From Escherichia phage Murica, in the sequence record NC_041871.1: 64,000 nt of DNA. One strand, given 5' to 3'. The stretch's first letter is position 1. The number at the start of each line of letters is the position of its first letter. Of this stretch, positions 6,099 to 35,117 are shown one piece after another. The position numbers and the translations under genes were made by a program. The notes beneath the pieces were generated by a model. It had not been told where the DNA came from. It was given only the letters and a program-made list of their open reading frames with translations, and did no database searches.

Positions 6099-6712
6099 TG
6101 GATATTATTGTTCTTAACGCCCCACCCAGCAGTGGTAAGGATCACATTGCAGATCTCTTGTTGGAAGCTATTCCTAACTCACACCACCGTGAGGTTAAGG
6201 AGATGCTCTTCAGTGTGGCAATTAAGGCAGCTGGTGTAACTCCTCAACTCTGGAATGCACTTTATGACCGCCACTACAAAGAAGATCCTTGCCCTTTCTT
6301 AATGATAGACGGCAAGCATGTTTCTCCGCGAGAGTGGATGATCCATTGTAGTGAAAATCTGATTAAACCTATCTTTGGTGAAGATGCTTTCGGTAAGGCC
6401 GCAGTCACATCCTTGAAGAAAGATTTCCCTAAAGGTAAAGGGGTTGTTGTTTACTCCGATGGTGGATTCAAAGAGGAGCTGGCATGCCTTAGTGAGTACG
6501 CATACAGCACAGGTGGAGATCTGTTGTTGTTCCGTATTCACCGTGTAGGATATGACTGGGGAAATGATTCCAGAACCTATCTAAGTCTGGAAAAGAACGG
6601 AATAAAAGGGGTTGAGTTTGATGTTGTAAACCCTGAAGGTGCACCTTGGGAGTGTGCATCGGAGATTGTGTGCAAGTATATTGATGCTAAAGAGGCCCAA
6701 GAAGAATGTTAA
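6098..6712 (+). CDS. deoxynucleoside monophosphate kinase (T4 gp1-like)
   Basis: LNAPPSSGKDHIAD aligns with T4 dNMP kinase LSGVKRSGKDTTAD; GGAGG SD. Confidence 0.65.
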   Translation: MDIIVLNAPPSSGKDHIADLLLEAIPNSHHREVKEMLFSVAIKAAGVTPQLWNALYDRHYKEDPCPFLMIDGKHVSPREWMIHCSENLIKPIFGEDAFGKAAVTSLKKDFPKGKGVVVYSDGGFKEELACLSEYAYSTGGDLLLFRIHRVGYDWGNDSRTYLSLEKNGIKGVEFDVVNPEGAPWECASEIVCKYIDAKEAQEEC

Positions 6713-7299
6713 TCGGAATTGATGTAGATCTGACACTGGTAGATTCAGGAACAGCATGGTGGGAGTGGTTGGAGCGTTTGTATGGTCCAGCCAGTAAGAC
6801 AGTAGCTAAACCTTCTAATGGGCTAATGTATTACGATCTGTCAAAGTATTGGCCTGATCGTCCCAAAGAAAACATCATAGGACCTTTTGATTTCTGGAGT
6901 GATCCGTTCCTCTACGACTTCCTTAAGCCTGAAGAGGGGGCTATTGAGGTTATGAAAGATTTGGTGGCTCGTGGTCACAAGCTTGCATTTATCTCGGTAT
7001 GCAAGAAAGGTCACCTTGCATCTAAATCAAGGTTCTTAAAGCGTTGGACCAGTGATTTTATGGATCTGGACGATCACACCCAAGGCCACGGCTTCTACGC
7101 CACACATTTCAAAGGGAATGTGGCTGTAGATGTTATAATTGACGACAGGCATGAATACCTGAACCAATTCGCTTCACGACCTGAAGTTATTAAAATCCTA
7201 AAAGATACACCTTATGAGCAATTCGAGGAGTTAAAGGTCAGTGTTGACTATACCGCTAATAGCTGGTATAAAATAGGAAAATTTTTAGAAGGTATTTGA
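6706..7299 (+). CDS. HAD-superfamily phosphatase, putative deoxyribonucleotidase
   Basis: N-terminal DxDxT motif (GIDVDLTLVD); sits in nucleotide-salvage cluster. Confidence 0.5.
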   Translation: MLIGIDVDLTLVDSGTAWWEWLERLYGPASKTVAKPSNGLMYYDLSKYWPDRPKENIIGPFDFWSDPFLYDFLKPEEGAIEVMKDLVARGHKLAFISVCKKGHLASKSRFLKRWTSDFMDLDDHTQGHGFYATHFKGNVAVDVIIDDRHEYLNQFASRPEVIKILKDTPYEQFEELKVSVDYTANSWYKIGKFLEGI

Positions 7300-7300
7300 A

Positions 7301-7501
7301 ATGGGCAGATGTTCTAAAGGTGGCGATCCTGTAGTCAGATACGGTGACTGGCTAGAGGTGTATGATCTAGGAGGTAAGCTAGTGTATGCCTCCAGGATCA
7401 CCCAAGACATGTGCTCCGATATGTTCAACAGATACCTTGCATTTAAGGCCAACATAAACCCAGACGAAATTTCCAAAATTAAAACAAGGAGAGCTAAATA
7501 A
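7301..7501 (+). CDS. hypothetical protein
   Basis: 66-codon ORF with purine-rich SD. Confidence 0.4.
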   Translation: MGRCSKGGDPVVRYGDWLEVYDLGGKLVYASRITQDMCSDMFNRYLAFKANINPDEISKIKTRRAK

Positions 7502-8484
7502 TGCTAAAACTGTGCACTGCAAAGATCATTGCTGACAGCATTTCCGAGAAAGGTAAGCGCATCACCACTTTTGAGCTAGAGTATCCTCGAATTATTCACT
7601 CAGAGCTTATGACGCACCGAGTGTTCAGCCGAAACGCCATGTCTTCCCGTGCAGTGCCTGTCGGAAAGATGCTGCAACAGATTGTGGAGAATCCGGCAAT
7701 GCCAGTTCGCTTCGGTGTAAATAAGCGAGGAATGGAAGATGGTGGGGAACACGATCAAAAGATCCGTGTAGAGTACACTGATATGGAGCTAACTCCGGAA
7801 GAGTTTTGGAAAGAAGCTGCAAAAAACGCCGCTTGGCATGCAGAGAAGTTTGCCCTTGCTGGTTACCATAAGCAAGTATGTAACCGCTTAGTGGAGCCTT
7901 TTCAGCGCATGAAAACAGTTGTAACAAGCACCGAGTGGAATAATTTTTTCCACCTCCGTTGCTGGCACGATGCGGATCCTACGATTCAGATGTTAGCTAA
8001 TTGTATGTGGGAGGCTCTTGTGAATAGCACTCCTGAAATCCTTAAACCGGGTCAATGGCACACTCCATATGTAGAGCACGTTTATTTGGACGGGGAGTTT
8101 AACTACGCTGTACGTGACACAGAAGGAAAGCTCTGCATTCTCGATACTAAAGAAGCTCTGTCTATCAGTGCTAGTTGCTGTGCACAAGTATCTTATCGAA
8201 ATATTGACAGCACGTTTGAAAAGGCAGACAGTGTGGCTAAAAAATTGATTGGTGGGGATCGTATTCATGCAAGCCCTTACGAGCACCAGGCAACACCTAT
8301 GGATCACGATAACGCAATGGAACGTTTAAACTACTACCTGTCTTCATGTGAAATCACACAAGACATCAGTACTTGGCAGGAAGGTGTAACCCATCAAGAC
8401 CGTGATGGTAAATTCTGGTCTGCCAACTTTTGTGGGTGGGTTCAGCACAGACAACTGCTTAATAACCACTTCGTGAAAGGTTAA
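7501..8484 (+). CDS. thyX: flavin-dependent thymidylate synthase ThyX
   Basis: ELMTHRVFSRNAMSSR fits ThyX RHRxxSxxxxSxR signature; NNFFHLRCWHDAD; AAGGAG SD. Confidence 0.75.
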   Translation: MLKLCTAKIIADSISEKGKRITTFELEYPRIIHSELMTHRVFSRNAMSSRAVPVGKMLQQIVENPAMPVRFGVNKRGMEDGGEHDQKIRVEYTDMELTPEEFWKEAAKNAAWHAEKFALAGYHKQVCNRLVEPFQRMKTVVTSTEWNNFFHLRCWHDADPTIQMLANCMWEALVNSTPEILKPGQWHTPYVEHVYLDGEFNYAVRDTEGKLCILDTKEALSISASCCAQVSYRNIDSTFEKADSVAKKLIGGDRIHASPYEHQATPMDHDNAMERLNYYLSSCEITQDISTWQEGVTHQDRDGKFWSANFCGWVQHRQLLNNHFVKG

Positions 8485-29327: not shown

Positions 29328-29654
29328 ATGGGTATACCAATCACTGTAAAAGAATTGAATGAGCGTGATGCAGGCGGTCTATGGCCTGCACGAAAAATCC
29401 GCTGCGTCTATATGAAAGAGAATCTTGAACATCTTGATCAACAGATCAAGGTCGGTGATATTTTTGAGGTCTTCTATTCCAATCGTCGTAACTGGGAAAC
29501 CATTCAACCTTCTGGTTTTGTTCTTGCCAAACTTGACACTGGAGAAGTGATTATCCCTGGGTTGGATATTGTCTTCGAAATTATCCAGGAGTGGGATCCG
29601 GATAAGATTAGATACGAAGAGTTATTCGGTAAAGGTATTATCAAACCTGTGTGA
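29328..29654 (+). CDS. hypothetical protein
   Basis: GAAGGAGA SD. Confidence 0.5.
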   Translation: MGIPITVKELNERDAGGLWPARKIRCVYMKENLEHLDQQIKVGDIFEVFYSNRRNWETIQPSGFVLAKLDTGEVIIPGLDIVFEIIQEWDPDKIRYEELFGKGIIKPV

Positions 29655-29662
29655 GGTGGATT

Positions 29663-29962
29663 ATGTCTACAAAGGCGGCTAAATACTCCTACATGCCATC
29701 AACCTCTGCAGAGGTAGACTTTAGTTTCGATGTGTTTCCACTGTTTGAGGTGGTTCTGGCATACCCAACAATACTATCTACTCCTGAATCACTTGTACCT
29801 GTTAAGTTGCAGAACGCTATGCATTCTATGCACTACAACAATAAATGTAGGCACAGATGGTGTCAGGACGAGGAAAAAGATTTGGATAGTTTGAGGGATT
29901 TTGACAGTCACCTTTTGACACCTTTCAGCTACTCCAACCTTGATAAGCCCTCATGGGTATAG
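29663..29962 (+). CDS. hypothetical protein
   Basis: ATG 29663 after GAGGTGG. Confidence 0.45.
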   Translation: MSTKAAKYSYMPSTSAEVDFSFDVFPLFEVVLAYPTILSTPESLVPVKLQNAMHSMHYNNKCRHRWCQDEEKDLDSLRDFDSHLLTPFSYSNLDKPSWV

Positions 29963-29986
29963 CAAAATATCAAATTTAAGACACCT

Positions 29987-30013
29987 AGGACGCTCTGTGG
30001 CGTCCTTTTCTTT
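29987..30013 (+). terminator. intrinsic terminator
   Basis: AGGACGC-tctgtg-GCGTCCT then TTTCTTT. Confidence 0.6.
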
Positions 30014-30175
30014 ATCTGGTGCACGATTGCATACCTTGGACAGATAATCTCGTTACAGAGCGTTTAAGAGCTTTCTACAAACAAGTCTCTCTTTCGAGCG
30101 TAGCGAGAACGCACGTCCGTTTTGACCAAAATCACCATACGCTCGGATTTTAACCAAACCCTCGCGGCGTTGCTG

Positions 30176-30204
30176 TTGACACATTACCGCTCCCGTGATA
30201 GTAT
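30176..30204 (+). promoter_or_regulatory. sigma70-like promoter with extended -10
   Basis: TTGACA (30176-30181), 17 nt, TGaTAGTAT (-10 at 30199-30204). Confidence 0.55.
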
Positions 30205-30236
30205 CCACACACAGTTTGGAGAATATGGAATACACA

Positions 30237-30326
30237 ATGAGAACATTGTCTGAAGTTTTAGTGGTGATCCTGATGATCATTACTTCCATAGCGGCTGTTG
30301 CCGGAATACTCACGGGTGGAACATGA
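30237..30326 (+). CDS. hydrophobic leader micropeptide (29 aa)
   Basis: MRTLSEVLVVILMIITSIAAVAGILTGGT; stop overlaps next start (ATGA). Confidence 0.3.
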   Translation: MRTLSEVLVVILMIITSIAAVAGILTGGT

Positions 30327-30535
30327 TCAACACACATGCACCTGAAGAGACATCCAAAGGAGTGACCATATGTCCCTTGGCTGAGCCAGTTAGAGAGGAA
30401 AACTTAGATTCTGAGGACTCTTCATCTTCGTCCCAGACAGATCCTGAGGCTGATGACCTGACGTGGGAGGACATCGTAGATATCTGGTTCTCTATTATGC
30501 CTGAGCACGAAGAGTTCAGAGGTGGTAGACTATGA
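30323..30535 (+). CDS. hypothetical highly acidic protein
   Basis: Ser/Asp/Glu-rich (DSEDSSSSSQTDPEADD); GGGTGG SD. Confidence 0.45.
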   Translation: MINTHAPEETSKGVTICPLAEPVREENLDSEDSSSSSQTDPEADDLTWEDIVDIWFSIMPEHEEFRGGRL

Positions 30536-30655
30536 AGCACCGAGCCCACACAGGTTCCTCATGCTAAAGCATGGCCTGAAGAGGCAAACGTGTATAATTC
30601 CTGTGCATTGTGACGTATAAAACCCGTTCACACTCTCATTTCCAGAGGAGATTTT

Positions 30656-30871
30656 ATGAAGATAGAAATATTTGGTGGAGCTGACAACACTCGTGGCCTG
30701 ATTTACCTGGAATTCGATGAATCATACCTGCCAGAGGTGTTAAATATAGACTCTGTTGCTGAGGCTTTGGGAGTAAACCCTAAAGAACTCCACTCTTGTG
30801 CTGAGATCGATGGTTGGGAAGAGACCATGAACATTGATTTCAGTGAAGTAGAGGATGAACCGCTGGACTGA
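30656..30871 (+). CDS. small acidic protein
   Basis: MKIEIFGG...; GAGGAG SD; last + strand gene before the noncoding region. Confidence 0.5.
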   Translation: MKIEIFGGADNTRGLIYLEFDESYLPEVLNIDSVAEALGVNPKELHSCAEIDGWEETMNIDFSEVEDEPLD

Positions 30872-30962
30872 CACACAATTAGCTGCCCGGCTAAAGTGCT
30901 GGAGCACCTACAATACATCTTTCAACTAAATTTCCCACCACCACAATCACTTACCTTCCACA

Positions 30963-31025
30963 CATGACTGTTTGCTTGTTTAGTGAGCAGTCATGCCTTG
31001 ACATTCTTGCCTATCCTGATAAAAT
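30963..31025 (+). promoter_or_regulatory. sigma70-like promoter with upstream inverted repeat, firing into ORF-free region
   Basis: CATGACTG (30963-30970) / CAGTCATG (30988-30995); TTGACA (30998-31003), 16 nt, TAAAAT (31020-31025). Confidence 0.45.
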
Positions 31026-32349
31026 TAAGTTCTTCTCTTTTCTTTTACCGAGTAATTCGGGTTTTCTGTTCTCTTCGGTTTGAAGGGGTATGGAGATACA
31101 CCTGAGTGAACATGGTGAACAACCGAACATTTGGCTATGGCATTAGCATGGCGAAGCGGACGGGTGACGAAAGAGGGGCCGGAGGACACCAGTCACTGCC
31201 ATATGATATATGGGTGATAACCTGAAGAGTCTGAATAAGTGTTTAAGTACCAGTCAGAGGAAAAGGTGAATGGTAGCCGAAGGGGGAGGGGGGTTTCTTG
31301 TATCTTTAATTTGTATATTATGTATACACTCGTAAACCAATCTCATCTGAATCTGTTTACCACACAAAGTAGATAGGGACAAATATCACCTATTAAACTT
31401 GAATTATTTATAGAAAATACCACAACACCACTTAAGTCTTTGATTTTACACACAAATCCTACAGATATTCAACCTCTATATTTAACATATTCATAACATA
31501 TTCCATACTCTACCTGTCTGATCAATTTACCCAACCACATCCTCCATATTTTCCCTGTCTGTACCACCCCTGCCCCGCCGGGAGTCCCGTCATATCTGGC
31601 TTTCCAGCAAATATCACACCCACAAATATCATTGCCTGAAGAGGGTTTCATCCCATAGTACATGCCTTACCTGAAGAGCGCTTCATACACCACGTAAATT
31701 TTTTAATTTACCCCCCCTCCCCGCCGCCGGAGTGGTCGGCTTTTCCCACACAGGCCTGAAGAGTCAGCCAGAAATATCTGAACAGGTCCAGTTATACCAC
31801 GATTTTGACCTGACCGACAGGAGTGCTGCCAGGCGGACGGAATGGGAATACTTCTCATTCTTATAATAATTCTCAAATATCGAGGCAGTGAGGCAAATTA
31901 ATAGGTGAGGCCGTTCACACAGTGGCACAACATTTGCAATCTATTTTGTGAGGGTGAATGAGAATACCTATCATTGTGAGAACTGTTATCATTACGGGCA
32001 ATTTAACATAATACCCATTATGCGCACCACTGGCGATCCATACAGGGATTGATAACATGAGTTACAGTTTACGCATATAACAATCATATTTCTTACTATT
32101 TGTGTGGGATATAGTTAGCAGCCGATAGATTAGATATTGACCTGTGGACTTCCAACCGTCTAGACGTCTAAACGCCCACACAACAAGGATTATACATACA
32201 TTACTGAATGTAAACAGGGCCGCAAAAATGCTACCATACCAGATTGTAAATTTTTCATGCAGCACTTGACAAAGAGGAGAAAAACTTGTCTGACACAATA
32301 TGACATACTGGGCACATTAAACACACTTTAGACTTAATTGACATGCCTG

Positions 32350-32469
32350 ACTGTTTACGCTGTCACTATTCACGCTATTACTATTCACTCCCTTTACTGT
32401 TCACGCTCTTACTGTTTACATGCTTAATGGTTTACATGACCAATAGTTTACATAGCTAACTATTTACAT
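32350..32469. repeat. iteron array: 8 direct 11-bp repeats at 15-16 bp period
   Basis: actgtttacgc, actattcacgc, actattcactc, actgttcacgc, actgtttacat, atggtttacat, atagtttacat, actatttacat starting at about 32350, 32365, 32380, 32396, 32411, 32427, 32443, 32459. Confidence 0.8.
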
Positions 32470-32481
32470 GGAAATGATAAG

Positions 32482-32762
32482 CCATGCCATTCGTTTGCAT
32501 GATAACTATTAGCAAGTTAATAATCTTTCGCTGGCTATGCCAGGTGACCTTTGGTCACCCCTTCGGGTGTTTCTATGACATAATATAAAAGCAGGGCAAC
32601 TATTAGAAGATCTATAGTTGCCTTGCTTGTTATGTCATGATTAACTAAATACAAGGCAACTATGATCTGATTAATAGTTTGCAAACAAACTATCACGGGG
32701 GGTGATGGTTACTGCTTTTATATTATGTCGCGACTCCGTCGCGCCATGCCATTCGTTTGCAT
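32482..32762. repeat. nested direct/inverted repeat complex
   Basis: 19-bp direct repeat CCATGCCATTCGTTTGCAT (32482 and 32744); 18-bp inverted repeat TGACATAATATAAAAGCAG (32576) / CTGCTTTTATATTATGTC (32712); palindromes GGTGACC-ttt-GGTCACC (32543-32559) and GGCAACTAT-N10-ATAGTTGCC (32595-32622). Confidence 0.75.
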
Positions 32763-33388
32763 AGTTGCCTTATTGTTACAGATAAAATAATTGTATTGTT
32801 AATTATTTCTTATCTTTCTCTTAGTCATCTAATGATTCCAGTCAGTATAGTAATGTACAGTAAACATTAGACGACTAAAGATTTATATGCTTATAATAAC
32901 TTACAGTGACAATTTCGGACTGTTTACGAAAAATGTTGACACCTGAGCCGATTTATGTTATGCAGTTTACACGAATAATTATTTTATGCAGGTATTGACT
33001 ATTCCGTTATTCTATGGTCGGAATAAATACTTAGCAGTCTATAGAATGGTGACGCTACGTGAATTCTGGAATTTAGTGGCTATAGTTATACCCGATTTTT
33101 CACGTAGAACACGCTTTTGTGGTTATGTAAGTGTATGACTTATAAAGATTTTTAGTTGTTGACAAGACACTGAAGATATGCATCAGGTTAAATTTTGTGC
33201 AATAGCTGCATTACGTGCAATTTTGGAAGGAAAAACGTGTAAAAATGGCCCTGCTACCACACAATGAAAGATTATGCAATAGCTATTTTATATGTATGTT
33301 TGTACAGTGTGTGGGATTGATGGCTAGTCAATTATTCCACTTGCCAGGTGGGGACGTTTGTGGTAGGAGAAATACAGACAAAAAGAAA

Positions 33389-33406
33389 GGGGCCTTTTAA
33401 AGCCCC
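33389..33406 (-). terminator. terminator closing the - strand arm
   Basis: GGGGC-cttttaaa-GCCCC with U-tract on - strand (complement of AAAAGAAA 33381-33388). Confidence 0.5.
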
Positions 33407-33425
33407 TGATAGTTTAGTTAAGAAA

Positions 33426-33845
33426 TTATAATGATTCGTATATTTCATAGATTCGATTTGCCAGGTCGTTACGGTAGCGGAATTTTTCCTCACGTTTGAT
33501 CATCAGATCTTTAAAGCCATATTCTTTAAGCACTTCATTAACTTTATGGCGGCATACCTTCATATTATCCTGTGCGTCACCAATAAACTTGTTGCTATGG
33601 TGCATGGCTTTAATTTCTTCTTCCAGGACCAGGGCAACTATGCGGACCGGATCAAGCTGATAGGCGGTAACATCAATGCGGCATTGTAAACGGCTTTTTA
33701 CGTCTGCCACCGGATATACTGCAACCTCTTCCCCGTCAACATTGACAATAATTAGTTTACCATCGATTTCGAATCCTTTCGCCGCCGGACCGTGACAAAA
33801 AGCGTTATCAAAGCTATATGCCGGATTATTAGATTTAATGTTCAT
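33426..33845 (-). CDS. hypothetical protein
   Basis: ATG with AAGAGGT SD; 139 codons. Confidence 0.5.
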   Translation of the reverse strand: MNIKSNNPAYSFDNAFCHGPAAKGFEIDGKLIIVNVDGEEVAVYPVADVKSRLQCRIDVTAYQLDPVRIVALVLEEEIKAMHHSNKFIGDAQDNMKVCRHKVNEVLKEYGFKDLMIKREEKFRYRNDLANRIYEIYESL

Positions 33846-33894
33846 GGTGTTTTTACCTCTTAGTTAATTTTCTTACAACTTCCCTTCAAAAAAG

Positions 33895-33923
33895 AATATA
33901 GCAAAACTGCCGATCCTTGTCAA
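33895..33923 (-). promoter_or_regulatory. sigma70-like promoter (- strand)
   Basis: On - strand TTGACA (33918-33923), 17 nt, TATATT (33895-33900); -35 sits in palindrome CCTTG-gttga-CAAGG. Confidence 0.45.
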
Positions 33924-33990
33924 CCAAGGATAGCATAATTTTTATGTGATCAAGGGGCTTTATTGCCCCCTGATCGTGCAACTTGTTGTA

Positions 33991-34254
33991 TTATTTGTTA
34001 CTCATCCAGTTTTCCCAGGCTGCCTGATAATCTGCCTCACTGCGGCGGATCTCTTCTTGCTCTTCAAGTCGGATCTCTTCTTCCAGGTACCCCAAGATAT
34101 CGGCTTTCTTGGTCTGGCGTAACATCCAATCATCTTTTTTACGGGTAAAGATCTTATATGCTTTCTCGCAAACCTCTTTTTTGCTACCTTTTTGGACTTC
34201 AAGAACTTTGTAGGCCATGTACTGAACTAGTTTAAGCTGATCAAGACGTTTCAT
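33991..34254 (-). CDS. hypothetical charged protein
   Basis: SD AAAGAGGT; 87 codons. Confidence 0.5.
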   Translation of the reverse strand: MKRLDQLKLVQYMAYKVLEVQKGSKKEVCEKAYKIFTRKKDDWMLRQTKKADILGYLEEEIRLEEQEEIRRSEADYQAAWENWMSNK

Positions 34255-34314
34255 GATGTTTACCTCTTTGTGTGGTTCTGATTAGTGGGCCTCCCGGCCC
34301 GTGTCATTATCTTA

Positions 34315-34587
34315 TTACTTACGGCGGCAGAATTCAAGCGTTTTTAATTGATAATCTTCCTCAGCCTGGAGTACAACCGCCTCGATCATTTCGTTGGCAT
34401 TGTTGAAGCCATACCCTTTAGCGAACTCGTCCGCACCACCTTCGTGATCATGTTCTGCGTTCATCGCTTCCACAAAATGGAATTCCAAATTGTTGAGGTA
34501 GGGGCTTGATGTGCCGTCTTCTTTTTCGATGAGATCCCAAATAGCATTAAAACGTGATTCGACTTCTTGATTAATCCAGCTTGACAT
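34315..34587 (-). CDS. hypothetical acidic protein
   Basis: SD AGAAGAGAGGAAA; 90 codons. Confidence 0.5.
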   Translation of the reverse strand: MSSWINQEVESRFNAIWDLIEKEDGTSSPYLNNLEFHFVEAMNAEHDHEGGADEFAKGYGFNNANEMIEAVVLQAEEDYQLKTLEFCRRK

Positions 34588-34641
34588 AGTGTTTTCCTCT
34601 CTTCTGGTTGTTGTGTGGGCACCTTTGCCCCTTCAAGATAA

Positions 34642-34670
34642 ATGTTACCCCACCCCATGGCAGATGTCAA
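34642..34670 (-). promoter_or_regulatory. sigma70-like promoter (- strand)
   Basis: On - strand TTGACA (34665-34670), 17 nt, TAACAT (34642-34647). Confidence 0.4.
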
Positions 34671-34693
34671 CGGTTTTTATAGTTCTTATATGA

Positions 34694-34718
34694 CAGGCAG
34701 GCCTGGTGATTGTCTCCC
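34694..34718 (-). repeat. copy of GGGAGACAATCACCRGGCCTGCC motif
   Basis: 24/25 identical to 44166-44190 in inverted orientation. Confidence 0.7.
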
Positions 34719-34805
34719 CCTGTTCCCAAGTGCCGCCCGTTTAATAAGAATAGCAAAAGGGGCCGAACAAGTCAACCCCAAAATCAGTACCAAAACACTT
34801 TTTAT

Positions 34806-35117
34806 TTATACGGTCCGGTCATTGGCCTTTGTCCAGGACCTGGCGATCCGTTTCCCAGTCACCTGGAACGGAGACTGCATTGTGTGTAATGAATCCAGCG
34901 TAAGGGAGGACCGTTTACGGCGTATCTTCAGGATCGCCAATGTATTGTCCATCTCACGGCCAGGTCCTGGGCGGTATGGAGTGCCTCCAGCGTTAAGGTT
35001 GATGATCTCATGTATTGAGATCCGGCGTTGTTTTGCTTCCGCATCTTTGAAGATAGCCAGCGGTGGCGCTATACGTTGCCGATACCAATCTAAAACGGTT
35101 GGCGTAATAGCGATCAT
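34806..35117 (-). CDS. hypothetical protein
   Basis: ATG after AGGGGT; 103 codons. Confidence 0.45.
   Translation of the reverse strand: MIAITPTVLDWYRQRIAPPLAIFKDAEAKQRRISIHEIINLNAGGTPYRPGPGREMDNTLAILKIRRKRSSLTLDSLHTMQSPFQVTGKRIARSWTKANDRTV

Follow-up and report, generated by a model that had tools for sequence, protein, structure and literature searches.

Escherichia phage Murica (sequence record NC_041871.1) was examined over a stretch of 64,000 nucleotides (nt), referred to here as the window, in which two gene arms of opposite orientation face each other across about 2.5 kb of DNA that holds no convincing gene (30872-33425, the gap). The last open reading frame (ORF) of the + strand arm lies at 30656-30871 and the first of the - strand arm at 33426-33845; according to the ORF list of the window, the largest ORF within the gap is at most 78 amino acids (aa). 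A 3.1-kb segment around the gap has matches in 121 phage records (80-99% identity), almost all from Escherichia phages of the genus Vequintavirus (rV5-like myoviruses of ~137 kb). Counted at 84-95% identity, the matches number 120 records with mostly these labels, plus 19 labelled "Campylobacter phage". In rV5 (NC_011041), the homologous stretch (104014-106617; 2.6 kb) lies without annotation between gp158 (+) and gp159 (-), the counterparts of the two flanking ORFs. The rV5 genome paper (Kropinski et al. 2013) drew it as a grey "non-coding" box that "contained no ORFs" (PMC3606486), assigned it no function, and did not locate the genome ends there. One related clade, represented by 120-140-kb contigs, was also compared (the sister clade). 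The features discussed below are collected in Table 1.

Coding potential was assessed in an alignment of 11 Vequintavirus sequences (Murica and ten others), with variable columns counted per codon position. The flanking genes vary mostly at codon position 3 (9, 5, and 30 variable columns in one gene and 10, 6, and 52 in the other). Such a third-position bias was seen in 0 of the 18 gap ORFs of at least 39 aa. Most of these ORFs are broken in relatives (intact in 0 to 5 of the 10), and the few that stay intact lie in near-invariant stretches belonging to M1, a candidate structured RNA described below. No conserved ORF is present in the gap. An earlier reading of the window (the original prediction) had described an ORF-free interval of about 2.5 kb between arm ends at 30871 and 33426 that contained an outward-facing promoter, iterons, and a repeat complex. 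The interval indeed lacks a coding signature in its 18 internal ORFs, and all three elements were recovered. The promoter is a near-consensus match with an extended -10; the iteron pattern ACTRTTYAC has 8 matches in the window against 2.3 expected, 6 of them within 32350-32467; and the repeat complex folds far better than shuffled sequences (-41 versus -12 kcal/mol; z = -10.6).

Table 1. Features in and beside the gap (window coordinates; a dot marks features without strand)
Feature	Position	Strand	Description or basis
Hairpin CATGACTG-N17-CAGTCATG	30963-30995	+	Follows the last + strand gene and directly precedes the promoter; read from sequence
Sigma-70-type promoter, TTGACA-16-TAAAAT	30998-31025	+	Extended -10 TG; 11/12 consensus; faces right genome end
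M1, candidate structured RNA (~270 nt)	31031-31300	+	Conservation, covariation, promoter
M1 helix H1			Window CCGA / UCGG; sister clade CCAGAA / UUCUGG
M1 helix H2			Window UUCGGUU / AACCGAA; sister clade UUCGGAU / AUCCGAA
M1 helix H3			Window GUAU / AUAC; sister clade GAUA / UAUC
M1 helix H4			Window UAUGGCA / UGCCAUA; sister clade UAUCGCA / UGCGAUG
M1 helix H5			Window GUGAC / GUCAC; sister clade GUUGG / CCAAC
AT-rich spacer (~230 bp)	31301-31530	.	GC about 0.33
M2, C-rich right-end block	31531-31831	+	GC skew down to -0.46; motif positions, local enrichment
Direct terminal repeat, one collapsed copy	31832-32290	.	459 bp; identity to relatives with determined ends
18-nt tandem repeat	31960-31995		Inside terminal repeat
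Palindrome CGTCTAGACG	~32157-32174		Inside terminal repeat
Promoter-like site	32272-32243	-	Inside terminal repeat
TGACAYAAT-like repeat array (~10 bp)	32291-32349	+	From first base past terminal repeat; 11-phage alignment
Eight ACTRTTYAC-type iterons (ACTGTTTAC)	32350-32467	+	15-16-bp spacing; pattern search
Perfect 20-nt direct repeats GCCATGCCATTCGTTTGCAT	32481-32500 and 32743-32762
Two-hairpin, terminator-like module	32525-32576		Between the direct repeats
Inverted-repeat complex (153 nt)	32577-32729		18-nt perfect outer arms, inner GGCAACTAT palindromes, CAC-GGGGGG-GTG hairpin
AT-rich stretch	32763-32900	.	Beside inverted-repeat complex; GC about 0.33
Inward-facing promoter-like sites	32868-33190	+	TAGACG-18-TATAAT at 32868-32897; TTGACA at ~32937 and 33159
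Intrinsic terminator	33388-33407	-	8-bp stem, 5 GC pairs, T-run; ends - strand arm; hairpin also faces + transcripts

Within the gap lies a sequence already determined as a direct terminal repeat in close relatives. The record of phage Gotham carries a repeat_region annotation at 1-459 and again at 136567-137025, with identical copies, and this 459-bp repeat (PMC7471380) aligns without gaps to 31832-32290 at 95% identity. For the vequintaviruses EdH4 and HdK5, a second, independent laboratory described "short terminal redundancies of 458 bp" (PMC6563267), and we found the repeat at two places in the EdH4 record. These known repeats share with the Murica copy their sequence (95%), their boundaries, and their place between small-gene arms. 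Record ends point the same way. Seven of the listed records begin at the equivalent of 31832, those starting at the repeat boundary including bov10K2, bov11CS3, bov22_2, bov25_3, EdH4, and Pr121LW, while the ECP2303 record ends at the equivalent of 32290. In a comparison of eleven genomes, the repeat itself shows an identity of 0.92-0.98; at 32290/32300 the value falls from 0.97 to ~0.55 within the first 50 bases beyond it.

A second genus provides a further comparison. In Klebsiella phage KPP-1, a Mydovirus of the same subfamily, two-fold coverage and PhageTerm placed a 514-bp repeat at 116316-116829 (PMC9862379). It sits, as in Murica, in an ORF-poor gap between two convergent small-gene arms. 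The left boundary reads ...ggtgcta|GACGGACAG in KPP-1 and ...gtgctgccag|GCGGACGG in the window, and the right boundary reads TTGACAAGGAGAGAGAATTGTGT| and TTGACAAAGAGGAGAAAAACTTGTC|, respectively. The ends of KPP-1 and of Vequintavirus, determined independently of each other, thus lie on homologous sequences.

Mapped from these relatives, the left end of the virion DNA corresponds to 31832 and the right end to 32290. The gap is thus very probably the terminal non-coding DNA of the linear Vequintavirus chromosome, seen as a concatemer junction composed of right-end unique DNA (30872-31831), one repeat copy (31832-32290), and left-end unique DNA (32291-33425). Since the 459-bp repeat maps between the two arms, these lie at opposite ends of the virion DNA, and each is read toward the end it occupies. 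Their apparent convergence comes only from the assembly, which fuses the ends via a single collapsed copy of the repeat. Murica differs from the known Vequintavirinae repeats in showing that single copy in a circularized assembly, with its ends placed by comparison. The original prediction had taken the layout as that of an origin or terminus or a non-coding RNA locus, unless it were an assembly artifact at a genome terminus. Its terminus survives as the physical ends of the packaged chromosome and not as a replication terminus. As to the artifact, the contiguity of the arms is a product of assembly and concatemers, whereas the non-coding DNA itself is real and conserved. The comparison establishes the repeat and both of its boundaries (via relatives), the lack of a coding signal, and an element order kept in two genera and in the sister clade. 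Earlier publications had reported both the non-coding gap (in 2013) and the genus's 458/459-bp terminal repeat (in 2019 and 2020), so the feature as a class is already known. Added here are the link between gap and repeat, the boundaries mapped in the window, the homology of the boundaries across genera, the layout of cis elements, and M1. What appears to be new is M1 together with the candidate packaging and origin elements.

The packaging, origin, primer, and regulatory-RNA functions discussed from here on are inferred. T7-type phages carry one repeat per concatemer junction; their terminase recognizes flanking sequences and cuts at the boundaries, and the repeat is duplicated via strand-displacement synthesis. 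The T7 junction itself comprises a 160-bp terminal repeat, arrays of short repeats beside it, the promoters phiOR and phiOL, and pac elements; phiOR lies near the right end and points through the junction. By analogy, replication of Murica DNA would yield concatemers with one repeat copy per junction. The terminase would then recognize sequences flanking the repeat and cut at ...GCCAG|GCGGACGG (31832) and ...AACTTGTC|TGACAC (32290), and the repeat would be duplicated through strand-displacement synthesis. The motif arrays are locally enriched, and their positions are conserved across clades. As they adjoin both repeat boundaries, they are natural candidates for terminase recognition: on the left CAAATATC, CCTGAAGAG, and the C-run block, and on the right the TGACAYAAT and ACTGTTTAC arrays. 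The left-hand candidates lie in M2, which holds CAAATATC at 31608 and 31623, CCTGAAGAG at 31635, 31670, and 31755, and a C-run, ACCCCCCCTCCCC (~31711-31725), complementary to the G-run of M1. Conservation of M2 extends to the sister clade, and KPP-1 has similar motifs (a C-run hairpin, AAATATCA repeats, and CTGAAG) immediately left of its repeat. M2 is a candidate terminase recognition or processing region. Murica resembles T7 in its short terminal repeat, its non-coding flanks with short-repeat arrays, and its right-end promoter directed toward the repeat, which together imply sequence-specific end formation. It differs in being a myovirus transcribed by the host sigma-70 RNA polymerase, in having arms transcribed toward the ends and not inward, and in the absence of sequence similarity; its pac elements are candidates drawn from sequence.

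The left-end unique region raises the question of whether the gap also serves in replication. In its strong form, this reading makes the gap mainly an iteron-type lytic origin, at which an initiator bound to the ACTGTTTAC iterons and/or the GGCAACTAT palindromes would melt 32763-32900, the terminal repeat being incidental. We regard this as possible but on balance unlikely. Eight iterons, dyad-symmetric sites, and an AT-rich stretch do give the anatomy of an iteron origin with an unwinding element, and 32763-32900 would be a candidate DNA-unwinding element should the complex serve as an origin; its counterpart in the sister clade is a longer AT-rich stretch. The layout recurs in KPP-1 and the sister clade, both of which have the same direct-repeat/inverted-repeat architecture with different half-sites and a similar direct repeat, suggesting a binding protein or structure that co-evolves with its sites. 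The sister clade adds three tandem perfect Escherichia coli DnaA boxes, GTTATCCACA (contig L009, ~6350-6420, - strand), at the counterpart of the terminal repeat, where the window has one-mismatch boxes only. In rV5, a change of GC/AT skew at 104425-105475 falls within the gap, although the authors attributed it to the change of transcription orientation (PMC3606486).

Against an iteron origin stand several observations. The Murica gap contains no perfect DnaA box, the flanking proteins have no Pfam match, and no initiator gene was identified adjoining the gap. Iteron number is hypervariable, from 3 to ~12 copies in relatives; indeed, the TGACAYAAT array and the iterons both vary in copy number among otherwise near-identical phages of the 11-phage alignment. 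Phage FV3 (L011) carries a single copy of the 20-nt direct repeat and lacks 262 bp (32481-32742), including the whole inverted-repeat complex. The complex is therefore dispensable or was lost by recombination between the direct repeats, and the need for growth expected of an origin is not seen in this viable phage. This deletion, together with the lack of DnaA boxes and of an adjacent initiator gene, weakens the case for an iteron origin at the left end. Compared with lambda ori or a plasmid oriV, the gap shares repeated binding-site-like sequences, dyad-symmetric sites, and adjacent AT-rich DNA (plus DnaA boxes in the sister clade) but differs in its 15-16-bp spacing, its hypervariable copy number, the absence of an identified adjacent initiator gene, and the loss of part of it in FV3. 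The origin put forward by the original prediction is accordingly plausible by anatomy, whether from iterons, inverted repeats, and AT-rich DNA or from promoter, G-run, and AT-rich DNA, but one origin-like block, 32481-32742, is missing from FV3. An origin does not conflict with the terminal-repeat finding and can only be an added function. The inverted-repeat complex and AT-rich DNA may form a second, dispensable element of origin-like or structural character at the left end.

In the right-end unique region, the + strand arm is followed by a hairpin that is the probable end of the arm transcript, judging from its sequence; in the sister clade, another hairpin (ATACCTAC...GTAGGTAT) occupies the counterpart position. 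The promoter directly beyond it is invariant or nearly so in Vequintavirus, and its counterpart in the sister clade reads TTGCAA...TGcTATAAT. Promoter-like sites across the gap as a whole are not more frequent than in shuffled sequence (12 versus 9.1 +/- 3.0). Downstream of the promoter lies M1, with a pyrimidine-rich 5' leader, helices H1 to H5, the motifs CTGAGTGAACAnnGTGAACAnCCGAA and GTTTAAGTACCAG, and a 3' end formed by the G-run GGGGGAGGGGGG (31282-31293) and TTTCTT (to 31299). M1 is 97-99.7% identical across 117 phage records and, in 50-nt bins, 99-100% identical, compared with ~95% for the flanking genes. Homologues were sought by pattern scans (three of viral contigs, one of metagenome contigs) and then by nhmmer across every locus fetched; they came from Vequintavirus and the one sister clade only. 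No more distant homologue emerged from these searches, the other pattern matches being due to chance, and a "distant" BLAST of M1 against phage records likewise retrieved Vequintavirus only.

Both clades retain the promoter, CTGAGTGAACAnnGTGAACAnCCGAA, GTTTAAGTACCAG, and the terminal G-run, and they differ by indels of 1, 5, and 19-25 nt; thus, M1 is not coding. RNAalifold predicted 52 pairs, 9 of them with compensatory changes, in a structure derived from the same two-clade sequences on which it was tested. In this structure, 99.2% of cells are paired (versus ~52% with slid partners), and the 9 compensatory pairs compare with 1-3. Hand-checked helices H1 to H5 contain eight compensatory pairs, several of which are transversions. 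Single-sequence folds indicate that the 5' pyrimidine-rich leader can pair with the 3' G-run in both clades. M1 has the generic marks of a non-coding RNA, namely, its own promoter, conservation above that of its neighbors, and a frame that is not conserved. Several points weigh against this interpretation. With only two clades, each compensatory pair represents a single event; part of the covariation lies in pyrimidine/purine strands that pair promiscuously; the single-sequence fold z-scores are modest (-1.8 and -1.6); and no canonical terminator follows the G-run. KPP-1 also lacks M1, which is therefore unnecessary for the general end-forming mechanism. An Rfam 15 scan of 29500-35000 (E <= 1), whose models included ToxI, ribozymes, 6S, transfer-messenger RNA (tmRNA), and phage small RNAs, returned no family for M1 or any other gap element. 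Its one sub-threshold match, to suhB, is the terminator hairpin near the - strand arm (22.5 bits against a gathering score of 41). ARAGORN found no tRNA or tmRNA in the whole window, and we found no literature report of transcription across the gap locus. M1 is an unreported, ultra-conserved, and probably structured predicted transcription unit. The original suggestion of a non-coding RNA locus thus gains a concrete candidate, whose expression is only predicted.

The junction transcription unit would consist of the promoter, a folded G-rich RNA of ~270 nt ending in GGGGGAGGGGGG-UUUCUU, and then the AT-rich spacer. By analogy, we prefer a role in cis, in which M1 would either form a persistent RNA-DNA hybrid, as a primer or origin activator, or couple transcription to junction processing like T7 phiOR; we nevertheless hold cis- and trans-acting roles to be about equally possible. 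R-loop or primer-RNA origins are known from ColE1 RNA II, T4 ori(uvsY) and ori(34), and mitochondrial CSB II (G5AG7). A promoter, a structured G-rich transcript, G5AG6 with a U-tract, and an AT-rich stretch amount to the layout of such an origin, and the CSB II G-run is strikingly like that of M1; we take both likenesses as leads and not as tests. M1 has no homology to ColE1 RNA II, the T4 origins, or CSB II, and the likeness rests on layout. In its boldest and rather doubtful form, the proposal makes M1 a new class of phage RNA at a chromosome end, whose G5AG6 RNA-DNA hybrid or G-quadruplex beside the AT-rich spacer would serve to prime or license either replication or the processing of the junction at the right end of Vequintavirus genomes.

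Alternatively, M1 could tentatively be taken as a trans-acting regulatory, anti-defense, or packaging RNA, comparable to the PhiTE pseudo-ToxI or the phi29 packaging RNA (pRNA) and encoded near the genome end by chance. The consensus promoter with its extended -10, the 97-100% conservation above neighboring genes, the compensatory helix changes between clades, and the non-conserved frame fit this role. Non-coding RNAs at intergenic or terminal loci have precedents among lytic phages: in the rV5-like phage PhiTE, the pseudo-ToxI RNA is expressed from an intergenic locus and counters ToxIN, and the phi29 pRNA is a structured RNA whose gene lies at a genome end. M1 differs from these examples in having no tandem 36-nt repeats and no Rfam match, including to ToxI and pRNA-type models. 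A ToxI-like antitoxin mimic as in PhiTE was discarded as a candidate, there being no 36-nt tandem repeats. A trans role is further disfavored by a 3' end left undefined by the sequence from which M1 is known and by its restriction to two clades, with none in KPP-1.

The assignment of chromosome ends must itself be weighed against headful packaging. Murica's own ends are placed through relatives that are 95% identical, a PhageTerm call for the Vequintavirus BpE1AUH gave headful packaging with partial permutation, and older papers considered two rV5-like phages, PVP-SE1 and PhiTE, to be circularly permuted. If the terminal-repeat calls in relatives were coverage or assembly artifacts, the gap would be a pac site or origin in a permuted genome packaged by headful. 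We consider this quite improbable, since the same 458/459-bp repeat was obtained by two independent laboratories, several other submissions have identical record ends, and a different genus (KPP-1) has homologous boundaries at an independently determined repeat. That the gap hides short or unusual protein-coding genes overlooked by annotators is hardly credible: JLBYU08, I29, Alma, PMBT16, and other records annotate "hypothetical proteins" of 35-60 aa there, but the missing third-position bias and the disruption in relatives leave these small GenBank ORFs unsupported, the only lasting ORFs sit in invariant M1 (which has frame-breaking indels in the sister clade), and rV5, FV3, ECP26, and the BASEL record annotate nothing in the gap.

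Placing the ends at this junction has practical consequences. Most of the ~120 deposited Vequintavirus records are permuted, with their true ends in mid-record, and their "convergent arms" are the two chromosome ends. Vequintaviruses are widely proposed as agents of therapy and biocontrol, and known ends fix the gene order, injection polarity, and packaging type of the genus. The junction offers a compact set of candidate cis elements (cut sites, motif arrays, inverted-repeat complex, and promoters) in an order conserved across genera, which opens the signals for packaging and replication in rV5-like phages to direct testing. M1 is the best-conserved sequence of the neighborhood. Should it be a primer, R-loop, or packaging RNA, it would represent a new mechanism for a large myovirus; should it form a hybrid or G-quadruplex at the right terminus, it would be a bacterial-virus counterpart of ColE1 RNA II or mitochondrial CSB II.

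Several smaller observations concern M1 and its surroundings. The length of the G-run at 31282-31293 differs among records (G4AG6, G5AG6, G6AG6, G5AG7, and G5AGAG5), which may reflect homopolymer polymorphism or sequencing error. A hammerhead-like reading of CUGAAGAG / CUGAGUGA was ruled out by the lack of an Rfam match and an unclosed stem II. A copy of CCTGAAGAG inside M1 (31221-31229) is carried by a ~25-nt hairpin that some sister-clade sequences have and others precisely lack. Further copies of this 9-mer lie at 30341 and 30575, with three more in the C-rich block, and it behaves like a small repeated or mobile motif. Some copies in the arms appear to be in-frame Pro-Glu-Glu codons (derived for the 30341 copy only). 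Its interpretation as a -35-like element of a phage promoter was rejected because neither the window nor the sister clade shows a consistent -10 at a set spacing from it. At the counterpart of the spacer, sister-clade contig L009 carries an inserted HNH endonuclease ORF of 256 aa (7216-7986, + in the locus and - in window orientation; HNH_3, E = 1.6e-18), and other sister-clade contigs have 550-850 extra bases there. No ORF was found in the spacer (~31300-31500) in Vequintavirus.

Around the repeat, the "repeat_region" annotated in navn, nomo, and Alma is the 18-nt tandem (x 1.9) inside the terminal repeat. The 555 extra bases of the I29 record (ON286975; L016 229-4084) were considered as a second repeat copy and rejected, as they duplicate window 31504-32048 together with a short inverted piece; this odd duplication is probably an assembly artifact at the genome ends. 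ECP26 and nomo have a ~33-nt insertion duplicating ACAGGAGTGCTGCC directly outside the left repeat boundary (left of 31832).

Within the left-end region, rV5 has an extra 35-bp insertion inside the inverted-repeat complex. The 52-nt module at 32525-32576 (GGTGAC..GTCACC, then CACCC-CTTC-GGGTG and a T-run) is an indel among vequintaviruses. A BLAST search of the gap against 5,426 E. coli genomes for host mimicry retrieved only this hairpin module and a marginal 40-nt match. The module matches, at 86-88%, the non-coding region of certain circular E. coli "plasmids" of ~13.6 kb (for example, pE275a_13), which carry a gene for a major capsid protein and are possibly satellite-like elements. Transcripts from the inward-facing promoter-like sites would be 200-500 nt long and stop at the shared terminator, which is annotated as such in the Alma and Gotham records. 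Block 33049-33185 (GTGACGCTACGTGAA...AAAGATTTnTAGTTGTTGACA) retains 83-87% identity to the sister clade amid otherwise unalignable DNA. The 139-aa gene beside the gap (33426-33845, - strand; rV5 gp159), whose product has no Pfam domain, is missing from FV3, nomo, Alma, and Gotham. It recurs with ~91% amino-acid identity in Phapecoctavirus (phAPEC8-like, ~150-kb) phages, again close to record ends and beside an ORF-poor, inverted-repeat-rich stretch (L010 4920-6466). Finally, 19 GenBank records (MG0656xx) named "Campylobacter phage", with host Campylobacter jejuni, are 88-97% identical to this E. coli Vequintavirus region, and their labels look like contamination or misassignment.

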